Of a DNA stretch of 55,655 nt, positions 2,709 through 55,655 are shown piece by piece. The stretch lies in IMG/VR virus record IMGVR_UViG_3300001686_000006, positions 1 to 55,655 of that record; one strand, given 5' to 3'. Position 1 is the stretch's first letter, and the number at the start of each line of letters is the position of its first letter. The position numbers and the translations under genes were made by a program. Source of the stretch: a virus. Lineage: Duplodnaviria; Caudoviricetes. The notes beneath the pieces were generated by a model. That model searched no databases and had not been told where the DNA came from. It saw nothing but the letters and a program-made list of their open reading frames with translations.

Positions 2709-4838
2709 ATGAGTAGTAATTTGGTCATTGTGGCCATTCCTGATGAGAACGATCCTGTGTGGGAAGTTTCCAGTGAGAAGATTCCACACATGACATTGCT
2801 GTTTCTCGGCGATGCAGAGAAAGTTTCTCGGGTCGATCAGATCGTGCTCTTCGTGGAGCATGCGGCAAACACATCGTTGAAGCGATTCTACCTTCCGGTG
2901 GATCATCGTGGTGAATTGGGCGCTGATCAGGCCGACGTGCTGTTCTTTAAGAAGAGTCGCTATGATTTCAAGGCGGTTCATGATTTTCGCAGCTTGCTGC
3001 TAAGAGATCCAAACATCAAGACGGCTTACGATTCGTCTACCCAGTTCGAGGCACCAGATGCAGTGGGACTTCCAGGCCAGCCCTGGATTCCCCATCTGAC
3101 TTTGGGTTATCCGACGGCTCCGGCCAAGCCTATCCCAACCGACCACATTTCTAAGTTCTACGACGTGAACTTTAACAAGATCGCAGTGTGGATGGGCGAC
3201 TTCGAAGGTCCCGAATTTCTGCTTAAGGACTATTGGGAAGATTTCGACGAGATGACGTTTCCCACGGACGTCGCCATGAGTGATCTCGAGCATTTCGGAG
3301 TCAAGGGCATGCATTGGGGCCAGCGTAAGGATACCACCGTTACTGTCAATGGCCAAACCAAGCAAGTGTCAGCCAAGAAGGCCGACAAGCTAGACAAAGA
3401 GTGGAACAAGAATGCCGCGTCTGCCGAGACGTGGGTCAAGATCCACAACGCTTCGGCCGATCATTTCAATGCTCACATCGAGTCACTTAATGCCAAGCAC
3501 AGTCACGATATGTCCAAGGAGGATTGGGACAAACCCGATAGCTGGTCACCGGAGACCAAGAAGTACATGACCGAAGTTCACAATCTGTCCAAGGAGGGCT
3601 TGGATAAAGCAGTGAACCAACTGGCGCCAAGTCCTACGGGTAAGCACAAAATCGGGATCGTGCACGGTTCGCAGTATGGCGAGTGGGGTCTCGTACTCGA
3701 CGAAGTCAAGCATGCTACCAATAACGAGGTTACCTGGGTCAAGCCAAAGCGCAATGAACGAGGTCAAATTGTGAGCGCTGAGTTCAAAATGAATCCCATG
3801 GTTCACACCGAAGACCTAGGCGCCGAATTCATCGAGCATTTCGGAGTCAAGGGCATGCGTTGGGGCGTGCGCAAGGCTGCCGCCGGGGCCAAGGCCACCA
3901 GTACGTTCGTCAAGGACGTAAATTTCGAGGCTCGCACGGCTCGAGGCCCGGAAGGCCAGTCCAGTAAGGCCACGCGTATGGTGGTCAGTGCGGCACACAA
4001 GCCATTCAAGAATGAGGACTTGCCCGCGGTCAAGACGCGTCATGGCGATTACGCTAAGCTGATCAATCGTGCTAAGAAGCCATTGTCCAAGGAAGCCAAG
4101 GCCTATCGTAAGGACGCTCGAGAGACTTACATCAAGCGGTTGGAGACCACTGCCAACTCGATGAAGAATGCTTCCGGGACTCGGCAGTATACGATTCGAG
4201 AGCGTGGGGTCGATCTACCTGCTGAGGGTGGCGCACTGCCTAAGTCGAAGTATTTCTGGGAAGTCAGCGCACGTGATGTCAAGCACGCAGCCGGTAACGT
4301 CGATGTTCGGCTTGAGCTCATTATGGCCGACGGTTACATCACTGATCTCAAACCGGTCGAGCTCGAGACTCCCATGATTCACGGTGTCGATCTGGGCGAG
4401 GAGTTCGTCCTCGAGCATTTCGGCATCAAGGGTATGCGCTGGGGTGTGCGCAAAGAACGCGCAGTCACCGCCGAAACGCATGTCGATACCGGCGTATTCA
4501 AGCGACAGACCAAGATTCGTACCACCGGCGGCGAAGCCCATCCGGCCCATGTCGATGCGGTTCGGGCCGCTGTGCAAAAGCAGAAGCTCAAGAAGAGCGG
4601 CACTGATGCTCTGTCCACCCAGGAACTTCGAGACCTGGCCAATCGGCTACAGGTGGAGAATCAGGTGCAGATGCTTACCTCGTCCAAGGGCAAGCGATTC
4701 GTCAACAAGCAGCTCGAGGAAGAGACCAAGAACCAGATCAGTCGAGGAACCAAGAAGGGCATCAAGAAGGCCGCTCCGCATGTGATCAAGAAGGCGAGTA
4801 AGGCGGCAGCCACCGGAGCGGTGGTAGTCGCCCTATAA
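2709..4838 (+). CDS. Multidomain protein: N-terminal 2H phosphoesterase plus three HFG(V/I)KGMxWG-tagged modules
   Basis: AAGGAGG SD. HxT motifs at H27 (IPHMTL) and H129 (IPHLTL). HFGxKGMxWG at H195, H377 and H570. Confidence 0.8.
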   Translation: MSSNLVIVAIPDENDPVWEVSSEKIPHMTLLFLGDAEKVSRVDQIVLFVEHAANTSLKRFYLPVDHRGELGADQADVLFFKKSRYDFKAVHDFRSLLLRDPNIKTAYDSSTQFEAPDAVGLPGQPWIPHLTLGYPTAPAKPIPTDHISKFYDVNFNKIAVWMGDFEGPEFLLKDYWEDFDEMTFPTDVAMSDLEHFGVKGMHWGQRKDTTVTVNGQTKQVSAKKADKLDKEWNKNAASAETWVKIHNASADHFNAHIESLNAKHSHDMSKEDWDKPDSWSPETKKYMTEVHNLSKEGLDKAVNQLAPSPTGKHKIGIVHGSQYGEWGLVLDEVKHATNNEVTWVKPKRNERGQIVSAEFKMNPMVHTEDLGAEFIEHFGVKGMRWGVRKAAAGAKATSTFVKDVNFEARTARGPEGQSSKATRMVVSAAHKPFKNEDLPAVKTRHGDYAKLINRAKKPLSKEAKAYRKDARETYIKRLETTANSMKNASGTRQYTIRERGVDLPAEGGALPKSKYFWEVSARDVKHAAGNVDVRLELIMADGYITDLKPVELETPMIHGVDLGEEFVLEHFGIKGMRWGVRKERAVTAETHVDTGVFKRQTKIRTTGGEAHPAHVDAVRAAVQKQKLKKSGTDALSTQELRDLANRLQVENQVQMLTSSKGKRFVNKQLEEETKNQISRGTKKGIKKAAPHVIKKASKAAATGAVVVAL

Positions 4839-4878
4839 TCCACAACCGAATACGAAAGGGTAGTAAGAGGATGATCGC

Positions 4879-5115
4879 ATGCCGCGAACTACCGTCGAAC
4901 AACAGAAGCAAAGCCAACCGGTAAGATGGTTTCTCCTTATCGAAGAGGTTGATTCGTTTAATACCCGAACCGGTCTCAGACTCAGTAATGTCTGGGGTCA
5001 TATTCATCGGGAAGAGTTCGAGGCTGCGCAGATCGAATTCCAAGGAGTAACGAAAAGATACGAAGAGTGGACCACTTTGGCTACAGATGACCGCCGTTTA
5101 GAGGAAAGGAGGTGA
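4879..5115 (+). CDS. Hypothetical protein
   Basis: 78-aa ORF with GAGG SD, fills the gap between flanking genes. Confidence 0.55.
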   Translation: MPRTTVEQQKQSQPVRWFLLIEEVDSFNTRTGLRLSNVWGHIHREEFEAAQIEFQGVTKRYEEWTTLATDDRRLEERR

Positions 5116-5119
5116 TCGC

Positions 5120-5281
5120 TTGGGTCTGGCATTAGTGCTGATCGGGATTATTCTGTGGGTAGCCTTAGGCTGGGTGCTCATTGGCCTGATCTGTATCGTC
5201 GTCGGCATCATTTTGCTATTCGTGCCAGGAGTTCCTTACGGCTATTCCAGTTGGCATGGCCGACGGGGACCTCCGCCGTAG
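5120..5281 (+). CDS. Small two-helix membrane protein (not in the ORF track)
   Basis: AAGGAGG SD then TTG start; MGLALVLIGIILWVALGWVLIGLICIVVGIILLFVPGVPYGYSSWHGRRGPPP (53 aa). Confidence 0.7.
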   Translation: MGLALVLIGIILWVALGWVLIGLICIVVGIILLFVPGVPYGYSSWHGRRGPPP

Positions 5282-5296
5282 ATGAAAGGAGGGTAA

Positions 5297-7042
5297 GTGG
5301 CACTGTCCAATACGGCAGTCCCGGTGTATTACGGGCAGTTTCGCCACGCGGTGGTGCGGGGAGAGATTCCGGTTAACCGAGAGATCTCTTTGGAGATGAA
5401 TCGGATCGACTCGCTCATCAAGAATCCCAACATCTACTATGACGATCAGGCGGTGGAGGGTTTTCTCCGCTTCTGTGAGGGCGAAATGACCCTGACTGAA
5501 GGCAGTGACCTCCACCTCCTGTTCACCTTTAAACTGTGGGCTGAGCAGATCTTTGGCTGGTATTACTTCATGGATCGCTCGATCTACGTTCCTTCGGTGG
5601 GCGATCACGGCGGACATTACGAGACCCGAACGATCAAGATTCGTCTGGTCAAGAAATTCTATCTTATCGTGGCTCGAGGCGCGGCCAAGTCGATGTTCGC
5701 TGCTTTGGTTCAAGCCTACTTCATGACGGTGGATACATCCACCACTCATCAGATCACCACGGCTCCGACCATGAAGCAGGCCGAAGAAGTACTGTCACCG
5801 TTTCGCACGGCGATTACTCGAGCTCGGGGACCACTATTTCAATTTCTTACCGAGGGCTCGCTGCAGAACACCACGGGCAATCGCATGATGCGGCAAAAGT
5901 TGGCCACCACCAAGAAGGGAATCGAGAACTTTCTCACCGGGTCTCTGTTGGAGATTCGACCCATGGCCATTGTCAAACTCCAGGGTTTGCGGACCAAGAT
6001 TGCCACTATCGATGAATGGTTGTCCGGTGATCTCCGAGAGGATGTCATCGGCGCAGTGGAGCAGGGTGCGTCCAAGTTGGACGATTACCTGATCATCGCC
6101 ATCTCATCAGAAGGTACGGTGCGTGCCGGTTCTGGTGATACCATCAAAATGGAGCTGTCTGACATCCTTAAGGGTGAGTACTCGGCTCCGCATGTGGCTA
6201 TCTGGCACTACAAGTTGGATGAATTAGAAGAAGTGGGCGATCCAGCCATGTGGCTGAAAGCCCAACCCAATCTGGGACAGACGGTGACCTATGAAACGTA
6301 TCAGCTTGACGTGGAACGGGCCGAAAAGGCTCCAGCGGCTCGAAATGACATTCTCGCCAAGCGATTTGGCATTCCAATGGAAGGCTACACGTACTTCTTT
6401 ACGTACGAGGAAACCTTACCACATCGTGTTCGTGAATTTTGGCAGCTCCCTTGCGCACTGGGCATGGATGCGTCGCAGGGAGACGACTTCTGGGCATTTA
6501 CTTTTCTCTTCCCGCTGGGTGGAGATCGCTACGGAGTCAAGACCCGTAGCTATATCACTGAGCGGACGCTGATGCTGTTGCAGGCGGCCATGCGCCAGAA
6601 GTACGAGGAGTTCATCCAAGAAGGCAGTCTTCACGTGATGAACGGCACGGTGTTAAACTGGGAAGAGATCTATGAAGATCTCGATACGTTCGTCATCACC
6701 TCAGAGTATGACGTACGGTGTTTTGGTTACGATCCGTACAATGCCAAAGAGTTTGTCAAACGCTGGGAGGCTGAGAACGGTCCATTCGGAATTGAAAAGG
6801 TGATCCAGGGGGCCAAGACCGAGTCTGTGCCCCTGGGTGAGCTGAAGAAGCTGTCCGAGGATCGGCATCTCATATTCGATCAGGTCTTGATGTCATTTGC
6901 CATGGGCAATGCCATTACCATGGAAGATACCAACGGTAATCGTAAGCTGTTGAAGAAGCGCCAAGAAGAGAAGATCGATAACGTAGCCGCGATGATGGAC
7001 GCCTACATCGCGTTCAAAGCTCACCAGGAGGCATTCGAATAA
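5297..7042 (+). CDS. terL: Terminase large subunit
   Basis: Walker A VARGAAKS, Walker B ATIDEW, nuclease-domain GMDASQGDD, YDPYN and KIDNVAAMMDA; 581 aa upstream of the portal. Confidence 0.93.
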   Translation: MALSNTAVPVYYGQFRHAVVRGEIPVNREISLEMNRIDSLIKNPNIYYDDQAVEGFLRFCEGEMTLTEGSDLHLLFTFKLWAEQIFGWYYFMDRSIYVPSVGDHGGHYETRTIKIRLVKKFYLIVARGAAKSMFAALVQAYFMTVDTSTTHQITTAPTMKQAEEVLSPFRTAITRARGPLFQFLTEGSLQNTTGNRMMRQKLATTKKGIENFLTGSLLEIRPMAIVKLQGLRTKIATIDEWLSGDLREDVIGAVEQGASKLDDYLIIAISSEGTVRAGSGDTIKMELSDILKGEYSAPHVAIWHYKLDELEEVGDPAMWLKAQPNLGQTVTYETYQLDVERAEKAPAARNDILAKRFGIPMEGYTYFFTYEETLPHRVREFWQLPCALGMDASQGDDFWAFTFLFPLGGDRYGVKTRSYITERTLMLLQAAMRQKYEEFIQEGSLHVMNGTVLNWEEIYEDLDTFVITSEYDVRCFGYDPYNAKEFVKRWEAENGPFGIEKVIQGAKTESVPLGELKKLSEDRHLIFDQVLMSFAMGNAITMEDTNGNRKLLKKRQEEKIDNVAAMMDAYIAFKAHQEAFE

Positions 7043-7662
7043 TGGGTAATCTGCTAAAGGCGCATATCTTCAAACAACGTATTGTGGGTATGCGAGAAGA
7101 GGTCAAGCTTAAGCTGTTTCATCCAGACGATACGCCTTTCGATGTTGATGCGGGCGCGTCATTCGATGCTGCTAGCGCTCGTTTCAGTGCGATGGATAAT
7201 TCGGCTGATGCGAACCATGAATTCAGGATGGGACTGCGTACGTCCGATGATGAGGCGTTCTCCATCTATTCGGGCACATGGGCACGAGTTCCTGAATCCG
7301 CAGCCGAAGCTGAAAGCGATTACTATGTGGGCTCTCTCCGTCTTCCGGGTCCCGGTCTATATCTGGTGGCTGGGCGTGTCCAGTTCTTTACCAACTCGTT
7401 GGAAGACACTGCCGTATCGGTGGAGATTCACTTCGAAGGAGGTTCTGACTACAGAATCGTAACCTGTCACAATACCGGACCGATCTCATTTGGCGGCGTT
7501 CCATCTGCCTTTCCCGAGGTTCCGTTCTCTCAGCTGGTTGATATTACGCCCGAATGCTTTCAATATATGTATGCGCAGGTCGACATCGAGGATAACAAGT
7601 CGTTCGAAGGACGCATCGTTCCTCGCGTACTGGTTAACATCGTTCGTCTAATGCCGATCTAG
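7042..7662 (+). CDS. Putative head decoration/fibre protein (C1q/TNF-like C-terminus)
   Basis: N-terminal LKLFHPDDTP resembles [10 protein letters not shown] of 9174..9842; LPGPGLYLVAGRVQF strand pattern. Confidence 0.4.
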   Translation: MGNLLKAHIFKQRIVGMREEVKLKLFHPDDTPFDVDAGASFDAASARFSAMDNSADANHEFRMGLRTSDDEAFSIYSGTWARVPESAAEAESDYYVGSLRLPGPGLYLVAGRVQFFTNSLEDTAVSVEIHFEGGSDYRIVTCHNTGPISFGGVPSAFPEVPFSQLVDITPECFQYMYAQVDIEDNKSFEGRIVPRVLVNIVRLMPI

Positions 7663-7673
7663 AAAGCATTCGA

Positions 7674-8876
7674 ATGATATTGAGCGAAGCCCAGCCATTT
7701 GCCTCCCCGAGCGAAGCATTAAAACATCACGGCGTAAAGGGTATGCGCTGGGGCGTAGTGAACGAAGACAAACCGATTGGACGCGACTTTAGTGGACGAT
7801 CCCCTGTAGCTCCAAAATCTTCGATACGTAAGGCGTTGGATGATAGAAAACAGCGTCGCGTAGACAAGTTCATAAAACGCGCTGATATTGCGAATACTAA
7901 GATCTCAGAGATAAAGCTCAGAAATGAGGAACTCGAAGGAACCAAAAATTTGGCTAAACGTTACGAAAAGTACATCAACAAACAGAACATAAAGGAGATT
8001 GACAAGGCGCAACAACGAGCATTACGAGATGCCGAAGCTGTCCAAAAGGGCAAGCTGACGTCTACGCAAAAAAAGATTATTATCGGCGGCGTGGCGGTAA
8101 CGGCGGTTATTGCTGCTGGAGCCATATATCGAGGGCAACAATCCGGTGCGTTGAATTCCTTTGTGCTTCGCGGTTCAGCCCAACTTCGTGGACAAAAGGT
8201 TCCGTTCGATATGAAACCGGAGCTTCGGGCTAAGATGACCGCGGAAGAACTGCTGAATAAGGTGGCGAAACCGGTAAATCCGAATTACTCAAAGATGGGC
8301 GGCAAGATGAATTGTCGTCGTTCTACTTATGCCTACGAACTTCGTCGTCGAGGTTTCGATGTACACGCGACTACCGCGACTGCCGGTTGGGGGCAGAGTG
8401 AATCGGGCGTGATTAATGCGCTAACTCCGGGAAGTAAGAACTTTTATCGACAGATGTCTATGTCTCAGGCGATAGTGAATACCGGAAGAAGTAGCAAGGC
8501 TCCTGGGGACAAGAGATTTATTCCCGGAGCGAAGATTCTTCTGGATAATCTCGATGCGTCTAAGCCGCTGGGCCAGTATACTGGGTATATCTCTAATTCC
8601 AAGAGAGTTCTCGAAGAACTTGCCAAGCAGCCAAGTGGTTCACGTGGTGAAGTAGTGTTCAAATTCCCTAAATTTGGACATAGTATGGCTTACGAAATTG
8701 TGAATGGTGTGCCACATATTTTTGATAGCCAGAAGGGTACGTTATACAATGCCACGCATATGGTTGAGACGAAGTGGGATGGTTTCACTGCTGCCGAAAT
8801 CAGGCGTTTGGACAACGTAGATTTGGACATCGGCTTCCTTACGCGCTGGGCGACTAATGTGGGAGCTCCATCATGA
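7674..8876 (+). CDS. HHGVKGMRWG-tagged protein with a TM helix and a C-terminal papain-fold (Tox-PL-like) toxin domain
   Basis: LKHHGVKGMRWG at aa 16-27; hydrophobic IIIGGVAVTAVIAAGAIY; putative triad C214 (MNCRRS), H336 (GHSMAY), D351 (IFDSQ). Confidence 0.75.
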   Translation: MILSEAQPFASPSEALKHHGVKGMRWGVVNEDKPIGRDFSGRSPVAPKSSIRKALDDRKQRRVDKFIKRADIANTKISEIKLRNEELEGTKNLAKRYEKYINKQNIKEIDKAQQRALRDAEAVQKGKLTSTQKKIIIGGVAVTAVIAAGAIYRGQQSGALNSFVLRGSAQLRGQKVPFDMKPELRAKMTAEELLNKVAKPVNPNYSKMGGKMNCRRSTYAYELRRRGFDVHATTATAGWGQSESGVINALTPGSKNFYRQMSMSQAIVNTGRSSKAPGDKRFIPGAKILLDNLDASKPLGQYTGYISNSKRVLEELAKQPSGSRGEVVFKFPKFGHSMAYEIVNGVPHIFDSQKGTLYNATHMVETKWDGFTAAEIRRLDNVDLDIGFLTRWATNVGAPS

Positions 8877-9097
8877 ATGAATCCGAAGCCCTAAAGATCG
8901 CCATGAAGTACATGGCGCCCGGAAGCAAGTTCATCAAGTCGGCCACTCACGGTAATCTCTTTATATTTCACATCAATGGCCCCGATCCACTTGAGGGAGA
9001 TCTAGATCCGTTCTTCTCGGTGGATAAGACAACAGGCAAGTTCAGTGATTTTTCTATCGCTGAAGGTGGGCCTGAACTACTCAGACAATTTATCTAG
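8873..9097 (+). CDS. Putative immunity protein (PepSY/YrhB-Imm35-like)
   Basis: 74 aa, ATGA-overlapped with the toxin stop; N-terminal SEALKIA helix and FSVDKTTG motif. Confidence 0.55.
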   Translation: MNESEALKIAMKYMAPGSKFIKSATHGNLFIFHINGPDPLEGDLDPFFSVDKTTGKFSDFSIAEGGPELLRQFI

Positions 9098-46481: not shown

Positions 46482-49400
46482 ATGGATTTCTATCAGATCC
46501 GGGTACGAGAAACGAAGGACAAGCTCTTAGAGCTATATCCAGACTTCGTCATCGGCCGTTCTGAGGATCTGATGGTCCAGGGTGGAAAGTTCTATGCCAT
46601 CTGGGATCCCGAGAAGGAACTATGGTCTAGAGATGAGTACGATGTGCAACGACTCGTCGATGAGGATTTGCTCCAGGAGAAGGAGAGACTGCAACGGGAA
46701 ACCGGGCAGACGTACACCGTAAAGTTCATGCGGTCGTTTCACTCCAACTCCTGGGCGCATTTCCGGAAATTCATGTCGAATATTTCCGACAACAGCCATC
46801 CGCTGGATAACAAGCTGGTGTTCGCCAATACCGAGGTGAAGAAGACCGATTACGCTAGCCGCAAACTCCCATACGCTATCGGAGAAGGGGATATCTCCGC
46901 ATGGGATGAGCTGATGTCTACACTATATTCACCTGATGAGCGGGATAAGGTGGAATGGGCGATTGGCTCTATCATTGCTGGCGATTCAAAGAAGATCCAG
47001 AAGTTCTTGGTCTTCTACGGACCACCGGGTACCGGGAAATCAACGGTTCTGAACATTATTCAAAAGCTATTCGAAGGCTACACAACCTCCTTCGATGGCA
47101 AAGCCCTAGGGTCATCCAACTCGCAATTTGCCACTGAGGCATTCAGGTATAATCCGCTGGTAGCAATTCAACACGACGGAAACCTGAGTCGCATCGAGGA
47201 CAATGCGCGGCTGAACTCGATCGTCGCTCATGAACAGATGACGATGAACGAAAAGTATAAGGCGTCATATTCTTCGCGAATTGATGCCATGCTGTTCCTG
47301 GGATCTAATCAACCGGTAAAGATCTCTGACGCCAAGTCAGGCATCATTCGTCGGTTGATCGATATTCATCCTACAGGAATCAAGTTCGGGTCCAAGCATT
47401 ATCAGGCGCTCCTGACTCAGATTGACTTTGAACTTGGTGCCATAGCGCACCATTGCCTCACTGTTTATTTGAGTATGGGCAAAAATTTCTACAATGCTTA
47501 TCGCCCGTTGGAGATGATGCTGCAAACCGACATCTTCTTCAACTTTATCGAAGCCCACTTCGACGTGTTCAAAGGCCAGGATTACACCACGTTGAAGCAG
47601 GCATATTTGCTCTACAAGGAATACTGCTCGGAAAGTGGGATCGAACGGCCTTTGCCCCAATACAAGATGCGCGAAGAACTGCGCAACTACTTCGATGAGT
47701 TCAAGGATCGAGCCGAGATCGACGGCGAAACTGTTCGTAGCGTGTATCGAGGGTTCACGGCAGAGAAGTTCAAGGCGCCCAAAGATGACAAGACCGCATT
47801 CTCATTGGTCTTGGAAGAGACGATATCTCTCCTGGATGAGGATCTAGCGTCGTGTCCGGCTCAGCTCGCGAATGCCAACGGAATGCCTTCCAAGCGATGG
47901 TCAAATGTACAGACCACCCTGACAGATATTGATTCGCGAGAAACTCATTACGTAAAAGTTCCAGAAAATCACGTGGTGATCGATTTCGATCTCAAGGATC
48001 AGAATGGCGATAAGGGTTTGGAACGAAATCTGGATGCGGCTTCGCATTGGCCTGCGACGTATGCAGAAATCAGCCGTTCTGGTTCGGGGATTCATCTGCA
48101 CTATATTTACGAGGGAAATCCCGCTGAGCTCGCTCCCATGTTCGCCGAGGGAATCGAGATCAAGGTCTATTCTGGTGATGCTGCGCTACGAAGGAAACTG
48201 TCGCTCTGCAACGCAGTGCCCGTGGCAAAGATCAGCTCGGGGTTGCCGCTCCGAGAGAGAAAGGATAAGATGCTTAAGGACAAGACGATTCAGAGCGAAC
48301 AAGGATTGCGGGCACTGATCCTACGGAATCTGCGCAAAGAGATCCATCCGGGAACCAAACCCTCGATCGATTTCATCAAGAAGATTCTCGACGACGCTTA
48401 TGAATCGGGCATGAAGTACGACGTAACTGATCTGCGTAGCCGAATCGTAGCCTTTGCCAACAACTCGTCCAATCAGGCCTCGGCGGCTCTGAAGGTGGTC
48501 ACCGAGATAAAATGGGCCTCGGCTGACGCTGGAGAGACCAAGGAAGAGGCATTCACGGCCGAGCATAAGGTAGAGGTATCCGACGATCGACTGGTGTTCT
48601 TCGACGTCGAGGTATATCCCAATCTGTTTGTGATCGCCTGGAAGTTCCAAGGGTCATCCGAAGTGGTGCGAATGATCAACCCCAAGCCGCACGAAGTGGC
48701 TGAGTTGTTCAAGTTGAAGCTGGTGGGCTTCTACAATCGTCGTTACGACAACCATATTATCTATGCCGCGGCCATGGGCGCCAGCACAGAGGAACTGTTC
48801 CGCTTGAGCACCAAGCTCATCGAGGGAAACCGCTCGGCTACCTTTGCCCAGGCCTACAATCTGTCCTACGCCGATATTTGGGACTTCTCGGTAGAGAAGA
48901 TGAGCCTGAAGAAATTCGAGATCAAACTCGGAATTCTGCACATGGAGTTGGATCTGCCCTGGGATCAACCGGTGGATAAGAAACACTGGTCTCGTGTGGT
49001 GGAATATTGTGTCAACGATGTAATCGCTACTGAAGTCGTGTTCGAGGATCGTAAAGCTGATTTCGTGGCTCGGCAAATTCTGGCTGAGCTATCTGGGCTC
49101 ACAGTCAATGACACCACGCAAACTCATACGGCCAAGATCATATTCGGCGATGACGTCAAGACGGCAAACAAGCAGTTCGTCTACACCGATCTCTCAAAGG
49201 ATTTCCCGGGGTACAAGTTCGAGCTGGGTAAGAGCTATTACAAGGGCGAAGAGCCAGGAGAGGGTGGCTATGTCTACGCTGAACCGGGAATGTATGAGAA
49301 CGTAGCGGTATTGGACGTTGTGAGCATGCATCCCAAGAGCATTGACCTACTTAATCTTTTCGGCCCGTATACGAAAAATTACGCTGCGCTTACAGAGGCT

Positions 49401-50309
49401 CGAATAGCGATCAAGCACCAAGACTATGACAAGGCGCGTTCGTTGCTCAATGGTCGGCTAGCCCCGTTTCTAGAGGGAGCTGAGAACGACCGAGCAGATC
49501 GTCATGGTACTGAGTTAGCTTTCGCTCTACGCATTGCCCTCAATATCGTCTACGGCCTTACTTCCGCCAAATTTGATAACCCCTTCCGGGATATTCGTAA
49601 CGTCGACAATATTGTCGCCAAGCGCGGCGCATTATTTATGATCGACCTGAAACAGGCTCTGCAGGAACAAGGCTTTCAGGTGATCCATATCAAGACGGAT
49701 TCCGTGAAAATCCCTAATGCTACTCCCGAAGCCATCGCTGCGGTGAAGACGTTGGGCTCGTTCTATGGGTATGAGTTCGATCACGAAGAAACCTACGACA
49801 GGTTCTGCCTGGTCAACGATGCGGTCTACGTGGGCGGAATCCTCACTGTTCCTTGGGAAGAGGGTCATCCGAAATACCACTGGACCGCAGTAGGGGCCCA
49901 ATTCCAACACCCCTATGTGTTCAAGACGCTGTTCTCAAATGAGCCGCGCACGTTTTACGACTATTGTGAAGCTCGAAGCGTGTTGAAGGGCACGATGTAT
50001 ATCTATACAGGCTCTGAGAAGCCCGTTAACGGTGTTCTCAGCGCCACCCCTAAGCAATTACGACATGTGGGTAGGACCGGCCTGTTTGTGCCTGTAGAGA
50101 GCGGTGGCGGTGCCTTGTACCGAGTCTATGAAGATAAGTATTACGCCGTGAGCGGCACCAAGGGTCATTTGTGGATGGAAGCGGATCTGGCGATTGAAGC
50201 TGGAGAGAAGGATGACCTGAAGATCGACATGACATATTTCGATAAGCTGAAGAACGACGCGGTCAAGGCGATCGACCAATTCGGGCCGTTCGAGGCATTT
50301 GTAAGCTAG
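46482..50309 (+). CDS. Helicase (SF3/D5-like) - primase (AEP-like) - 3'-5' exonuclease - family B-like DNA polymerase fusion
   Basis: Walker A GPPGTGKST; VIDFD and SRSGSGIHLHY; FFDVEVY, NRRYD, YCVNDV; LDVVSMHP, RIALNIVYG, HIKTDS. Confidence 0.88.
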   Translation: MDFYQIRVRETKDKLLELYPDFVIGRSEDLMVQGGKFYAIWDPEKELWSRDEYDVQRLVDEDLLQEKERLQRETGQTYTVKFMRSFHSNSWAHFRKFMSNISDNSHPLDNKLVFANTEVKKTDYASRKLPYAIGEGDISAWDELMSTLYSPDERDKVEWAIGSIIAGDSKKIQKFLVFYGPPGTGKSTVLNIIQKLFEGYTTSFDGKALGSSNSQFATEAFRYNPLVAIQHDGNLSRIEDNARLNSIVAHEQMTMNEKYKASYSSRIDAMLFLGSNQPVKISDAKSGIIRRLIDIHPTGIKFGSKHYQALLTQIDFELGAIAHHCLTVYLSMGKNFYNAYRPLEMMLQTDIFFNFIEAHFDVFKGQDYTTLKQAYLLYKEYCSESGIERPLPQYKMREELRNYFDEFKDRAEIDGETVRSVYRGFTAEKFKAPKDDKTAFSLVLEETISLLDEDLASCPAQLANANGMPSKRWSNVQTTLTDIDSRETHYVKVPENHVVIDFDLKDQNGDKGLERNLDAASHWPATYAEISRSGSGIHLHYIYEGNPAELAPMFAEGIEIKVYSGDAALRRKLSLCNAVPVAKISSGLPLRERKDKMLKDKTIQSEQGLRALILRNLRKEIHPGTKPSIDFIKKILDDAYESGMKYDVTDLRSRIVAFANNSSNQASAALKVVTEIKWASADAGETKEEAFTAEHKVEVSDDRLVFFDVEVYPNLFVIAWKFQGSSEVVRMINPKPHEVAELFKLKLVGFYNRRYDNHIIYAAAMGASTEELFRLSTKLIEGNRSATFAQAYNLSYADIWDFSVEKMSLKKFEIKLGILHMELDLPWDQPVDKKHWSRVVEYCVNDVIATEVVFEDRKADFVARQILAELSGLTVNDTTQTHTAKIIFGDDVKTANKQFVYTDLSKDFPGYKFELGKSYYKGEEPGEGGYVYAEPGMYENVAVLDVVSMHPKSIDLLNLFGPYTKNYAALTEARIAIKHQDYDKARSLLNGRLAPFLEGAENDRADRHGTELAFALRIALNIVYGLTSAKFDNPFRDIRNVDNIVAKRGALFMIDLKQALQEQGFQVIHIKTDSVKIPNATPEAIAAVKTLGSFYGYEFDHEETYDRFCLVNDAVYVGGILTVPWEEGHPKYHWTAVGAQFQHPYVFKTLFSNEPRTFYDYCEARSVLKGTMYIYTGSEKPVNGVLSATPKQLRHVGRTGLFVPVESGGGALYRVYEDKYYAVSGTKGHLWMEADLAIEAGEKDDLKIDMTYFDKLKNDAVKAIDQFGPFEAFVS

Positions 50310-55229: not shown

Positions 55230-55655
55230 ATGCGTACCATCAGCAAAACCATCGCTGCCATTGTCTCTATGGCCGCAATGATGATGGTCCTCCCGGCATT
55301 TGCCGCGGCGGACACCCCAATTTGCCACAACGGAATCCTCAGCGACGACGCGGGACAAGGTTGCGCAGACGGTCTCTACGCTCAGGTTTACGGATCCGGA
55401 GGCGGATCCAACGACGGAGCGATTTGCCATGACGGGATTCTGTCCAACGACGTCGGCCAGGGCTGCTCTGACAGTTTCAGAAGTACGAATCAGTCATCGT
55501 CAGCTAGCTCATCATCCTATAACGGTGGGAGCAGCAACTCGATGGTCAACCCCAACTGCGAAAGCGGGGGGAACTCTCAGATCGTCTCGGCCAACGGCCT
55601 ATACTGGGGTAAGTATCAATTCGATCGCGCTACCTGGATAGCCAATGGCGGCTCG
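55230..55655 (+). CDS. Secreted resuscitation-promoting-factor (Rpf)/transglycosylase-like protein, 3' truncated (not in the ORF track)
   Basis: Signal peptide MRTISKTIAAIVSMAAMMMVLPAFAAA; catalytic-region CESGGN..NGLYWGKYQFDRATWIANGG. Confidence 0.85.
   Translation, partial: MRTISKTIAAIVSMAAMMMVLPAFAAADTPICHNGILSDDAGQGCADGLYAQVYGSGGGSNDGAICHDGILSNDVGQGCSDSFRSTNQSSSASSSSYNGGSSNSMVNPNCESGGNSQIVSANGLYWGKYQFDRATWIANGGS

Follow-up and report, generated by a model that had tools for sequence, protein, structure and literature searches.

Phage T4 encloses in its head, and ejects from it, small basic proteins and enzymes that bear a capsid targeting sequence: a short, mostly N-terminal peptide, which is removed by the prohead protease. 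Encapsulins use cargo-loading peptides, short and disordered, to direct varied enzymes into a shell of HK97 fold; these peptides are usually C-terminal and of other sequence than the one that concerns us here, and encapsulins work without DNA or a portal, so that they offer an analogy only. A third device is the MuF protein: in the outline given by Jamet et al. 2017 (PMC5576092), MuF proteins bear variable toxin domains and are proposed to be loaded into the head and delivered with the DNA; SPP1 gp7, a portal-bound member of the MuF family, is described there as having one to two copies in each capsid. The subject of this article is a disordered peptide of about 20 residues, here called the tag, with the core H[FH]G[VI]KGMxWG. 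It occurs in two proteins, p1 (ORF 2709-4838, 709 aa) and p2 (ORF 7674-8876, 400 aa), encoded on a stretch of viral DNA of 55,655 bases (IMGVR_UViG_3300001686_000006; completeness of the record is estimated at 94%) that is referred to below as the window. The tag is equal to a catalogued Pfam family, PF23847 (DUF7211), which marks a very large protein family in the packaging/head module of one siphophage lineage that includes Lactococcus phage 1706, Rhodococcus phage ReqiPepy6, and clusters of Arthrobacter, Gordonia, Microbacterium and Streptomyces phages. What may be new is the role proposed for it, a MuF-independent docking or loading signal for the phage head, a reading to which we assign a probability of about 0.5.

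How does this locus compare with its closest counterparts? The parallel with MuF is close, and the carrier is different. In the description of the MuF polymorphic toxins of temperate phages cited above (PMC5576092), their genes lie in the packaging module beside terminase and portal, variable enzyme or toxin domains (ADP-ribosyltransferases among them) are attached to a conserved carrier, and a small downstream ORF is taken to confer immunity. The tagged genes and proteins share the first two of these features; the third is shared by p2 only. The differences are these: 1) The carrier here is a disordered motif rather than a folded domain. 2) The genes of p1 and p2 lie upstream of the portal gene, whereas a MuF gene lies immediately downstream. 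3) Unlike MuF, the tag is present in several to nine copies per genome, can be repeated within a protein, and can follow an enzyme domain (the 2H domain of p1). 4) Most tagged proteins carry no recognisable toxin. SPP1 gp7, a minor head protein in the capsid of a siphophage of Gram-positive bacteria, is a possible model for docking of the tag at the portal; it is a folded MuF protein, without sequence or domain relation to the tag. As far as the accounts of the T4 internal proteins go (PMC3012670, PMC7697877), these are a near analogue for a short head-targeting peptide. The sequences are unrelated and the phage lineage is another one, the tag belonging to siphophages of Gram-positive hosts; unlike the T4 sequence, the tag is also found internally and in tandem units, and for the tag both targeting and cleavage are only proposed.

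The tag and its two carriers

A six-frame regular-expression scan finds exactly four copies of H[FH]G[VI]KGMxWG in the window, and the looser patterns G.KGM.WG and KGM.W likewise match only four times. Their His codons lie at 3291, 3837 and 4416 in p1 and at 7725 in p2, as the preliminary description of this DNA had it. All four copies are matches to PF23847 (25 positions, gathering score 27 bits), at 35.8-44.7 bits and per-genome E-values of 8e-13 to 5e-10; scored over whole proteins, DUF7211 reaches 107.5 bits in p1 and 31.9 bits in p2. Similarity of this order is far above chance. The consensus is roughly [DE][DE]x-L-x-H-[YFH]-G-[VI]-K-G-M-[KR]-W-G-[VI]-R-[KR]. The Pfam entry assigns no function; in the literature searched, no paper names DUF7211, no relevant one contains the motif strings or gives the tag a role, and the Rhodococcus phage paper PMC13313380 has nothing about it. 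Compared with PDB sequences, p1, p2 and the tag profile gave no meaningful match, and a homologue search with p2 residues 1-45 gave no candidate.

Is it the peptide or the DNA that is being conserved? The copies differ at synonymous codons (at 3-4 of 10 in four of the six pairwise comparisons, at 1 and 0 in the other two), and the tag is thus conserved as protein. One could imagine the repeat as a DNA-level recombination junction for the shuffling of modules, encoding a peptide without a role: the tag does mark gene starts and module borders, and modules occur both fused and split. Yet the same peptide is found in phages of very different base composition infecting both host phyla, and a protein profile of it matches 49,604 members. 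In its pure form the junction was rejected on the synonymous differences just given, and the idea as a whole is scarcely credible.

The two carriers and their parts are laid out as follows:

2709..4838, plus strand: p1; a 2H domain, two units of tag plus alpha/beta module, then tag plus helical core
2709..3257, plus strand: predicted 2H phosphoesterase domain, p1 residues 1-183, confident in the AlphaFold model
3282..3332, plus strand: tag copy 1, His codon 3291, PF23847 40.2 bits
3330..3794, plus strand: module 1, p1 residues 208-362, three helices then four strands, of no known family, pI 7.3
3825..3881, plus strand: tag copy 2, His codon 3837, PF23847 44.7 bits
3888..4364, plus strand: module 2, p1 residues 394-552, predicted architecture as in module 1, pI 9.9
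4407..4460, plus strand: tag copy 3, His codon 4416, PF23847 41.2 bits
4512..4835, plus strand: core module, p1 residues 602-709, four helices, pI 10.5, phrog_11022
7674..8876, plus strand: p2, 400 aa; in order, a tag at the N-terminus, a helical hairpin, a hydrophobic helix and a domain of papain fold
7710..7760, plus strand: tag copy 4, His codon 7725, PF23847 35.8 bits, predicted local distance difference test score (pLDDT) <50 at residues 18-26
8076..8129, plus strand: hydrophobic, transmembrane-like helix, p2 residues 135-152; the model has helices at 130-137 and 146-157
8226..8873, plus strand: predicted papain-fold cysteine hydrolase domain, p2 residues 185-400
8873..9097, plus strand: immunity-like ORF, 74 aa, acidic, pI 5.1; its start overlaps the p2 stop codon (ATGA)

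AlphaFold models of p1 (from 57 sequences, mean pLDDT 75.5) and p2 (from 69 sequences, mean 83.8) fall below pLDDT 50 at all four tags; in p1 the low-confidence stretches, residues 184-207, 363-393 and 553-601, are the three tags. The folded parts of the p1 model span residues 1-181 (2H), 209-360 and 394-550 (modules 1 and 2) and 615-708 (core). The tags stand at the N-terminus or between folded modules, and the models depict them as disordered linear motifs in flexible segments. (A technical note: most Pfam matches in the window itself are below cut-off, and the domain calls that follow rest on evidence of fold and motif.)

DUF7211 is recognized in three stretches of p1 (E 1.9e-31), and the protein matches phrog_24711 (E 4.8e-70). 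Its acidic N-terminal domain (pI 4.8) is, on modelling, a 2H phosphoesterase. It has the two HxT motifs, H27-M-T29 and H129-L-T131; Foldseek matches its fold to the plant CPDase 1jh6 (E 2.3e-5) and to E. coli LigT 5ldm (E 6e-5), with 19 matches at E<=1e-3 that include viral 2',5'-phosphodiesterases. By sequence it stays below the Pfam gathering scores (17.8 against 23.3 bits for LigT_PEase, 16.7 against 27 for 2_5_RNA_ligase2), and its homologues reach E 1.8e-7. The core module has 51 shorter homologues built either as tag plus core (~131-186 aa) or as 2H plus tag plus core (~300-340 aa), and p1 is for this reason the lineage's conserved tag-plus-core protein, with an N-terminal 2H domain, enlarged by two added units of tag plus module. 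Modules 1 and 2 are related in sequence weakly at best (E 0.08). Foldseek with the whole-p1 model matched the 2H domain only, leaving modules 1, 2 and the core (none of them folded alone) without a known fold; in the ESM Atlas the core finds only unnamed viral clusters (0.81-0.83) and weak DUF6576 look-alikes.

In p2 the tag is followed by a modelled helical hairpin (residues 57-124), read as a coiled coil, and by the hydrophobic helix. The C-terminal domain is, to judge from its model, a papain-fold hydrolase with a Cys-His-Asp triad and a putative toxin: Cys214, His336 and Asp351 are invariant across the 69 sequences, and the model superimposes on SpvD 5lq7 (Z 12.3, rmsd 4.4, 172 aligned) and on the glutamine deamidase OspI 3w30 (Z 9.6). 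Foldseek places SpvD, OspI and AvrPphB as the best matches, SpvD and OspI at E-values of only about 1e-2. The domain itself is below the gathering score of Gln_amidase PF15644 (19.5 against 24.1 bits); the same family is found in the homologues Lewando gp10, at 26.3 bits, and Vibaki gp6, at 43.6 bits. Homologues of the papain domain number 193; among the 120 listed, PF23847 is present in 112. The 74-aa ORF also has relatives placed directly 3' of papain genes, in the loci L060 and L017, as Lewando gp11 (E 7e-17) and as Secretariat gp16 (E 3e-8); this toxin-immunity-like pairing is kept in all five loci examined. The genes of p2 and its small neighbor are arranged as toxin and immunity genes usually are, with the 74-aa product the putative immunity factor.

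Much of what the preliminary description said of p1 and p2 is borne out. That tagged proteins include a 2H phosphoesterase and a papain-fold toxin is confirmed by the folds and the catalytic residues, and the regions that follow the tags are mostly basic, as claimed (pI 7.3, 9.9 and 10.5 for the three p1 modules, 10.0 for p2). Each tag was also said to precede a different domain. This is true except for the modules after tags 1 and 2, which share a predicted architecture; the 2H domain is indeed on a tagged protein, but it precedes the first tag and follows none.

The tag family and the head module

A context-blind scan of IMG/VR with a degenerate DNA pattern of the tag yields at least 100 stretches, many of them multi-copy, with up to eight copies in 5.5 kb. 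From these, 168 complete tagged frames (167 unique proteins) were taken. The typical member is short (median 188 aa) and basic (pI >9 after the tag in 163 of 168), and starts with the tag: the first tag is at most 45 aa from the longest possible start in 141 frames, at a median of 14 aa, and is internal only in the remaining 27; more than one tag is present in 16. A profile of 130 tags, searched against 1.84 billion proteins, matches 49,604 representative proteins at E<=1e-3 and 3,889 at E<=1e-10. The best 150 of these matches have two to five tags each; by regular expression, the median spacing of these tags is 205 aa.

What do these proteins carry besides the tag? A Pfam count over 150 proteins (the 148 longest of the 167 unique ones, together with p1 and p2) finds 2H in four, Gln_amidase in three, GNAT in two, and an ADP-ribosyltransferase, an M90 peptidase and DUF6883 in one each. 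Among the first 60 of the best 150 multi-tag proteins there are six with 2H, four or five with GNAT, two with Gln_amidase and one with CW_7. The preliminary description had envisaged interchangeable effectors; 2H, papain-fold deamidase, GNAT, ADP-ribosyltransferase and M90 domains are indeed found joined to the tag, but effectors are few.

Around p1 and p2, the packaging and head module contains the following:

4879..5281, plus strand: a pair of small ORFs, one of 78 aa and one of 53 aa (the latter with a hydrophobic stretch), without match in Pfam or PHROG
5297..7042, plus strand: large terminase subunit gene (terL), flanked by the genes of p1 and p2; Pfam TerL_nuclease E 2.3e-35, phrog_9 E 7.6e-110
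11177..12505, plus strand: portal protein; phrog_12 E 2.3e-34, Pfam Phage_portal E 6.8e-9, below cut-off
13103..15202, plus strand: prohead protease-major capsid protein fusion; phrog_3270 E 8e-233 over residues 27-650

The same module surrounds the tag in 33 related records that were searched whole (the contigs of at least 30 kb among 80 loci, with L087-L106 left out). All 33 have a tag above cut-off, a PF20441-bearing TerL whose open frame is 579-625 aa long (~585 is typical), a portal protein (above cut-off in 32; the lineage's portal type is PF04860) and a homologue of the window's protease-capsid protein with 41-59% identity. All of the 99 above-cut-off tags share the strand of terL; 44 lie no more than 4 kb upstream of it and 40 between terL and portal. 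These 84 uphold the head-module linkage that the preliminary description had asserted from one locus. Of the others, two are at 4-10 kb upstream of terL and three at most 10 kb downstream of portal. A single record has up to nine tags. The proposed tabulation of attached domains and neighbors, done on these samples, gives diverse domains beside terL and portal, as expected, but most tagged proteins turn out to be without an enzyme domain.

Named phages give the same picture. ReqiPepy6 has eight tags: the tag lies internally in gp013, the p1 homologue, and every one of the seven genes between TerL and portal (gp015-gp021) starts with a tag. The Arthrobacter phage Lewando has five tagged genes around terL, and four of its five TerL-portal genes start with a tag. 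In the Gordonia phage Secretariat, gp15 reads tag-GNAT-tag-papain, and a small ORF comes after it. In phage 1706 the gene directly upstream of terL, orf7, contains two tags; database records label orf7, and also ReqiPepy6 gp019 with its N-terminal tag, "structural protein", and the tag region matches phrog_35934, whose label is "virion structural protein". The "structural protein" labels are said to go back to mass spectrometry by Garneau in 2008 and Summer in 2011; the one review found on phage 1706 and mass spectrometry is silent on orf7. An Actinobacteria-Firmicutes supercluster containing these phages is outlined by Koert et al. (bioRxiv 10.1101/842583), and a capsid-protease fusion has been noted in the Arthrobacter clusters AM and AU (PMC5513430).

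The position of the tags within proteins invites another interpretation: that the tag is chiefly a site at which the prohead protease recognizes and cuts, splitting polyproteins such as p1 much as happens at the T4 targeting sequence, and is not itself a loading signal. The tags are indeed placed in disordered linkers exactly at module borders, acidic residues precede them, the tags of the 150 best-scoring members recur at the 205-aa median spacing, and a homologue of the protease-capsid protein is present in every sampled record. But most tags are about 14 aa from the N-terminus of single-module proteins, where cleavage would free only a short peptide. Besides, a protease site would still put these proteins inside the procapsid, and in that the two explanations overlap. 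As an alternative to loading, a cleavage site is quite unlikely.

That loading would be independent of MuF, as the preliminary description held, fits the searches made: PF04233 has no match in any of the 34 records (the window, searched at E<=0.01, and its 33 relatives), and PF06152 has none above cut-off in the 34, the window containing only two 12-bit sub-threshold matches outside p1 and p2; these negatives cover the two Pfam families and not the MuF3 and MuF4 profiles of Jamet et al. In other actinophages, which lack the tag, related cargo rides on other head proteins. The 2H domain of p1 finds, by tblastn, matches in 125 phage records; 25 of the 60 listed are on genes annotated as capsid maturation protease, MuF-like fusion, capsid morphogenesis or virion structural protein (29-34% identity). 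Beagle gp25 combines Phage_Mu_F (E 1.4e-7) with a 2H-like part behind it and is separated from the portal gene by one small ORF; AluminumJesus gp21 combines MuF (E 5.9e-5) with 2H (E 1.8e-4) directly after the portal gene; neither has DUF7211. Vibaki gp6 is a head protein encoded after the portal, with Gln_amidase (E 7e-11) and no tag. The sequence comparisons thus indicate that homologous 2H and papain cargo is carried by MuF or protease head proteins in tag-less phages. It is the tie of the tag to the head module, the absence of MuF and the presence of homologous cargo on MuF and protease head proteins elsewhere that together support a MuF-independent head-loading tag. The interpretation in the preliminary description is to that extent supported in part.

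A number of points weigh against that reading. Because the sample was collected via the tag, the link between tag and head module is demonstrated in one direction only; ten of the 99 tags are more than 10 kb away from terL. The search pattern itself imposes part of the invariance seen at H, G, G, M, W and G of the tag alignments. Apart from DUF7211, no Pfam family is found on more than four of the 150 proteins, so that enzyme cargo is rare: the majority of tagged proteins are small, basic and without an enzyme domain, and effectors are a minority. Presence in virions is suggested by the wording of database records only. Transmembrane-like stretches, to which we return, occur in 30 of the 168 proteins. 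And the commonest tagged protein is the small basic core protein directly upstream of terL, at the classic site of the small terminase gene: in 70 of the 80 loci the end of a tagged ORF is no more than 700 nt upstream of terL, mostly within 30 nt.

Is the tag-plus-core protein, then, simply the missing small terminase or a packaging accessory, with a tag that binds TerL or DNA and with the other tagged proteins as its paralogues? This is the strongest rival. The core motif ...KKSG..ALS..EL..L..RL.LE.. is present, by a strict regular expression, in 47 of the 167 tagged proteins, and in 39 of the 70 tagged ORFs just upstream of terL. Small size and basic character would suit the role; relatives have a gene annotated "terminase" and no small subunit named; and P27-type small terminase PF05119, the single family searched, has no match in the whole window, which also counts against head loading. 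The Pfam and PHROG matches of p1 do not include a terminase family. On the other side stand the sheer number of tags (up to nine per record, eight in ReqiPepy6) and what they are fused to: 2H, GNAT, ADP-ribosyltransferase, and a papain toxin with its immunity-like gene. Some tagged proteins contain hydrophobic helices, and 1706 orf7 is annotated as structural. Foldseek gave the core no small-terminase fold, which for a small helical domain is weak evidence, and in the window a gap of 458 nt, with two small ORFs in it, separates the end of p1 from terL. On balance, a small terminase or packaging accessory is unlikely to be the answer.

The hydrophobic stretches, in p2 as well as in the 30 proteins, suggest a further possibility: the tagged proteins might work at the producing cell's membrane or envelope (to time lysis, exclude superinfection or secrete toxins), with the tag a membrane-targeting or export motif. 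The first tagged gene does follow the lysis genes in ReqiPepy6, Secretariat and Lewando. Nevertheless such a stretch is absent from 138 of the 168 proteins; the tag itself, hydrophilic and basic, is not a signal peptide; and the genes lie on the terL strand within the packaging module, with homologous enzymes on head proteins elsewhere. A membrane role is very unlikely.

Other features of the window

The two small ORFs that separate p1 from terL (4879-5115 and 5120-5281) have no counterpart in most relatives, in which there is no gap; locus L060 has one of 448 nt. On the other side of terL, ORF 7042-7662 (206 aa) begins at the terL stop codon and has neither a tag nor a Pfam or PHROG match; in relatives its position is filled by tagged genes. 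Fibre-like genes form two sets, the first upstream of p1 (22-981, 981-1460, 1461-2678) and the second between p2 and portal (9174-9842, 9842-11164), the latter an unusual placement for fibre genes, within the terL-portal interval. ORFs 981-1460 and 9174-9842 share 40% identity over their C-terminal 115 aa (E 9e-25); collagen repeats are present in ORF 9174-9842, and PHROG matches of ORF 22-981 are labelled "head decoration" and "tail fiber".

Seven relatives (G026, G027, G008, G018, G023, G031 and G015) have in-frame stop codons within the match to the protease-capsid fusion; in G026 and G027 a single TAA parts protease from capsid in the same frame. Separate genes, read-through or another route to the fusion could account for these. 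Antisense to the protease-capsid gene of the window is a 752-aa open frame (13229-15487, minus strand) with similar frames in three related loci: most likely a by-product of base composition.

The window contains no homologues of 1706 orf4 and orf6, of Lewando gp1, gp2, gp3 and gp6, of Secretariat gp7 and gp11, or of ReqiPepy6 gp012, and no match to HNH endonuclease PF01844 anywhere along its length; the HNH gene and the small pre-tag genes of relatives may fall in the missing ~6% of the genome or may be lacking here. ORF 55230-55655 is still open where the record ends. Its N-terminus resembles a signal peptide, it contains two Cys-containing repeats, and it has no PHROG match; its C-terminal stretch is of a kind typical of transglycosylase-like lysins, and it may be a lysis gene cut by the record end. 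Farther from the head module, 46482-50309 encodes a 1275-aa protein that matches phrog_4210 ("DNA polymerase") end to end and primase families at residues about 120-430: a primase-polymerase fusion, typical of the phage group.

How loading might work, and what it would mean

If the tag is a loading signal, its mode of action can be pictured as follows. The tag would bind a conserved site of the procapsid: the portal, the protease/scaffold part or the capsid protein. Tagged proteins would by this means be enclosed in the assembling procapsid, with possible cleavage at the tags; being basic, they would accompany the packed DNA and pass out of the head together with it at infection. Enzymes acting early in the next cell would be a minority among them. 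In the producing cell, p2 would be kept harmless by the 74-aa product of the overlapping gene. The analysis establishes the motif with its position, strand and disorder, the folds, the basic character of the proteins, the gene context, the lack of MuF, the cargo shared with other carriers and the toxin-immunity layout; binding, encapsidation, tag cleavage, ejection and the roles of the enzymes are steps that we infer. For the 2H domain, counter-defence or RNA repair is plausible, and for the papain domain host modification. (Another technical note: complex prediction for an alignment of the 35-aa tag region with the 699-aa protease-capsid fusion gave a score of 0.00 twice, with the controls not folded, and is evidence neither way.)

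A more ambitious version of this reading is offered tentatively, as something that may well not hold in full: a portable, MuF-independent DUF7211 tag that packs up to about nine different proteins into each virion of this very large lineage of Actinobacteria and Firmicutes phages, among them ready-made counter-defence or takeover enzymes (2H phosphoesterase, GNAT, ADP-ribosyltransferase, papain-fold deamidase) acting in the next host before any phage gene is expressed, and that would by itself be enough for the loading of a foreign protein.

The first minutes of an infection are decided by proteins that enter with the phage DNA, and few of the signals that load them are known. If the tag is such a signal, a large domain family acquires a function, and some 20 residues common to about 50,000 protein clusters acquire a meaning. 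The tag would then single out, in phages that infect Gram-positive bacteria of soil and gut, a whole class of candidates for injected effectors and counter-defence enzymes, and would be an easy means of putting proteins of choice into phage particles. Should the tag be part of the packaging machinery instead, it would identify the missing small terminase of this lineage.

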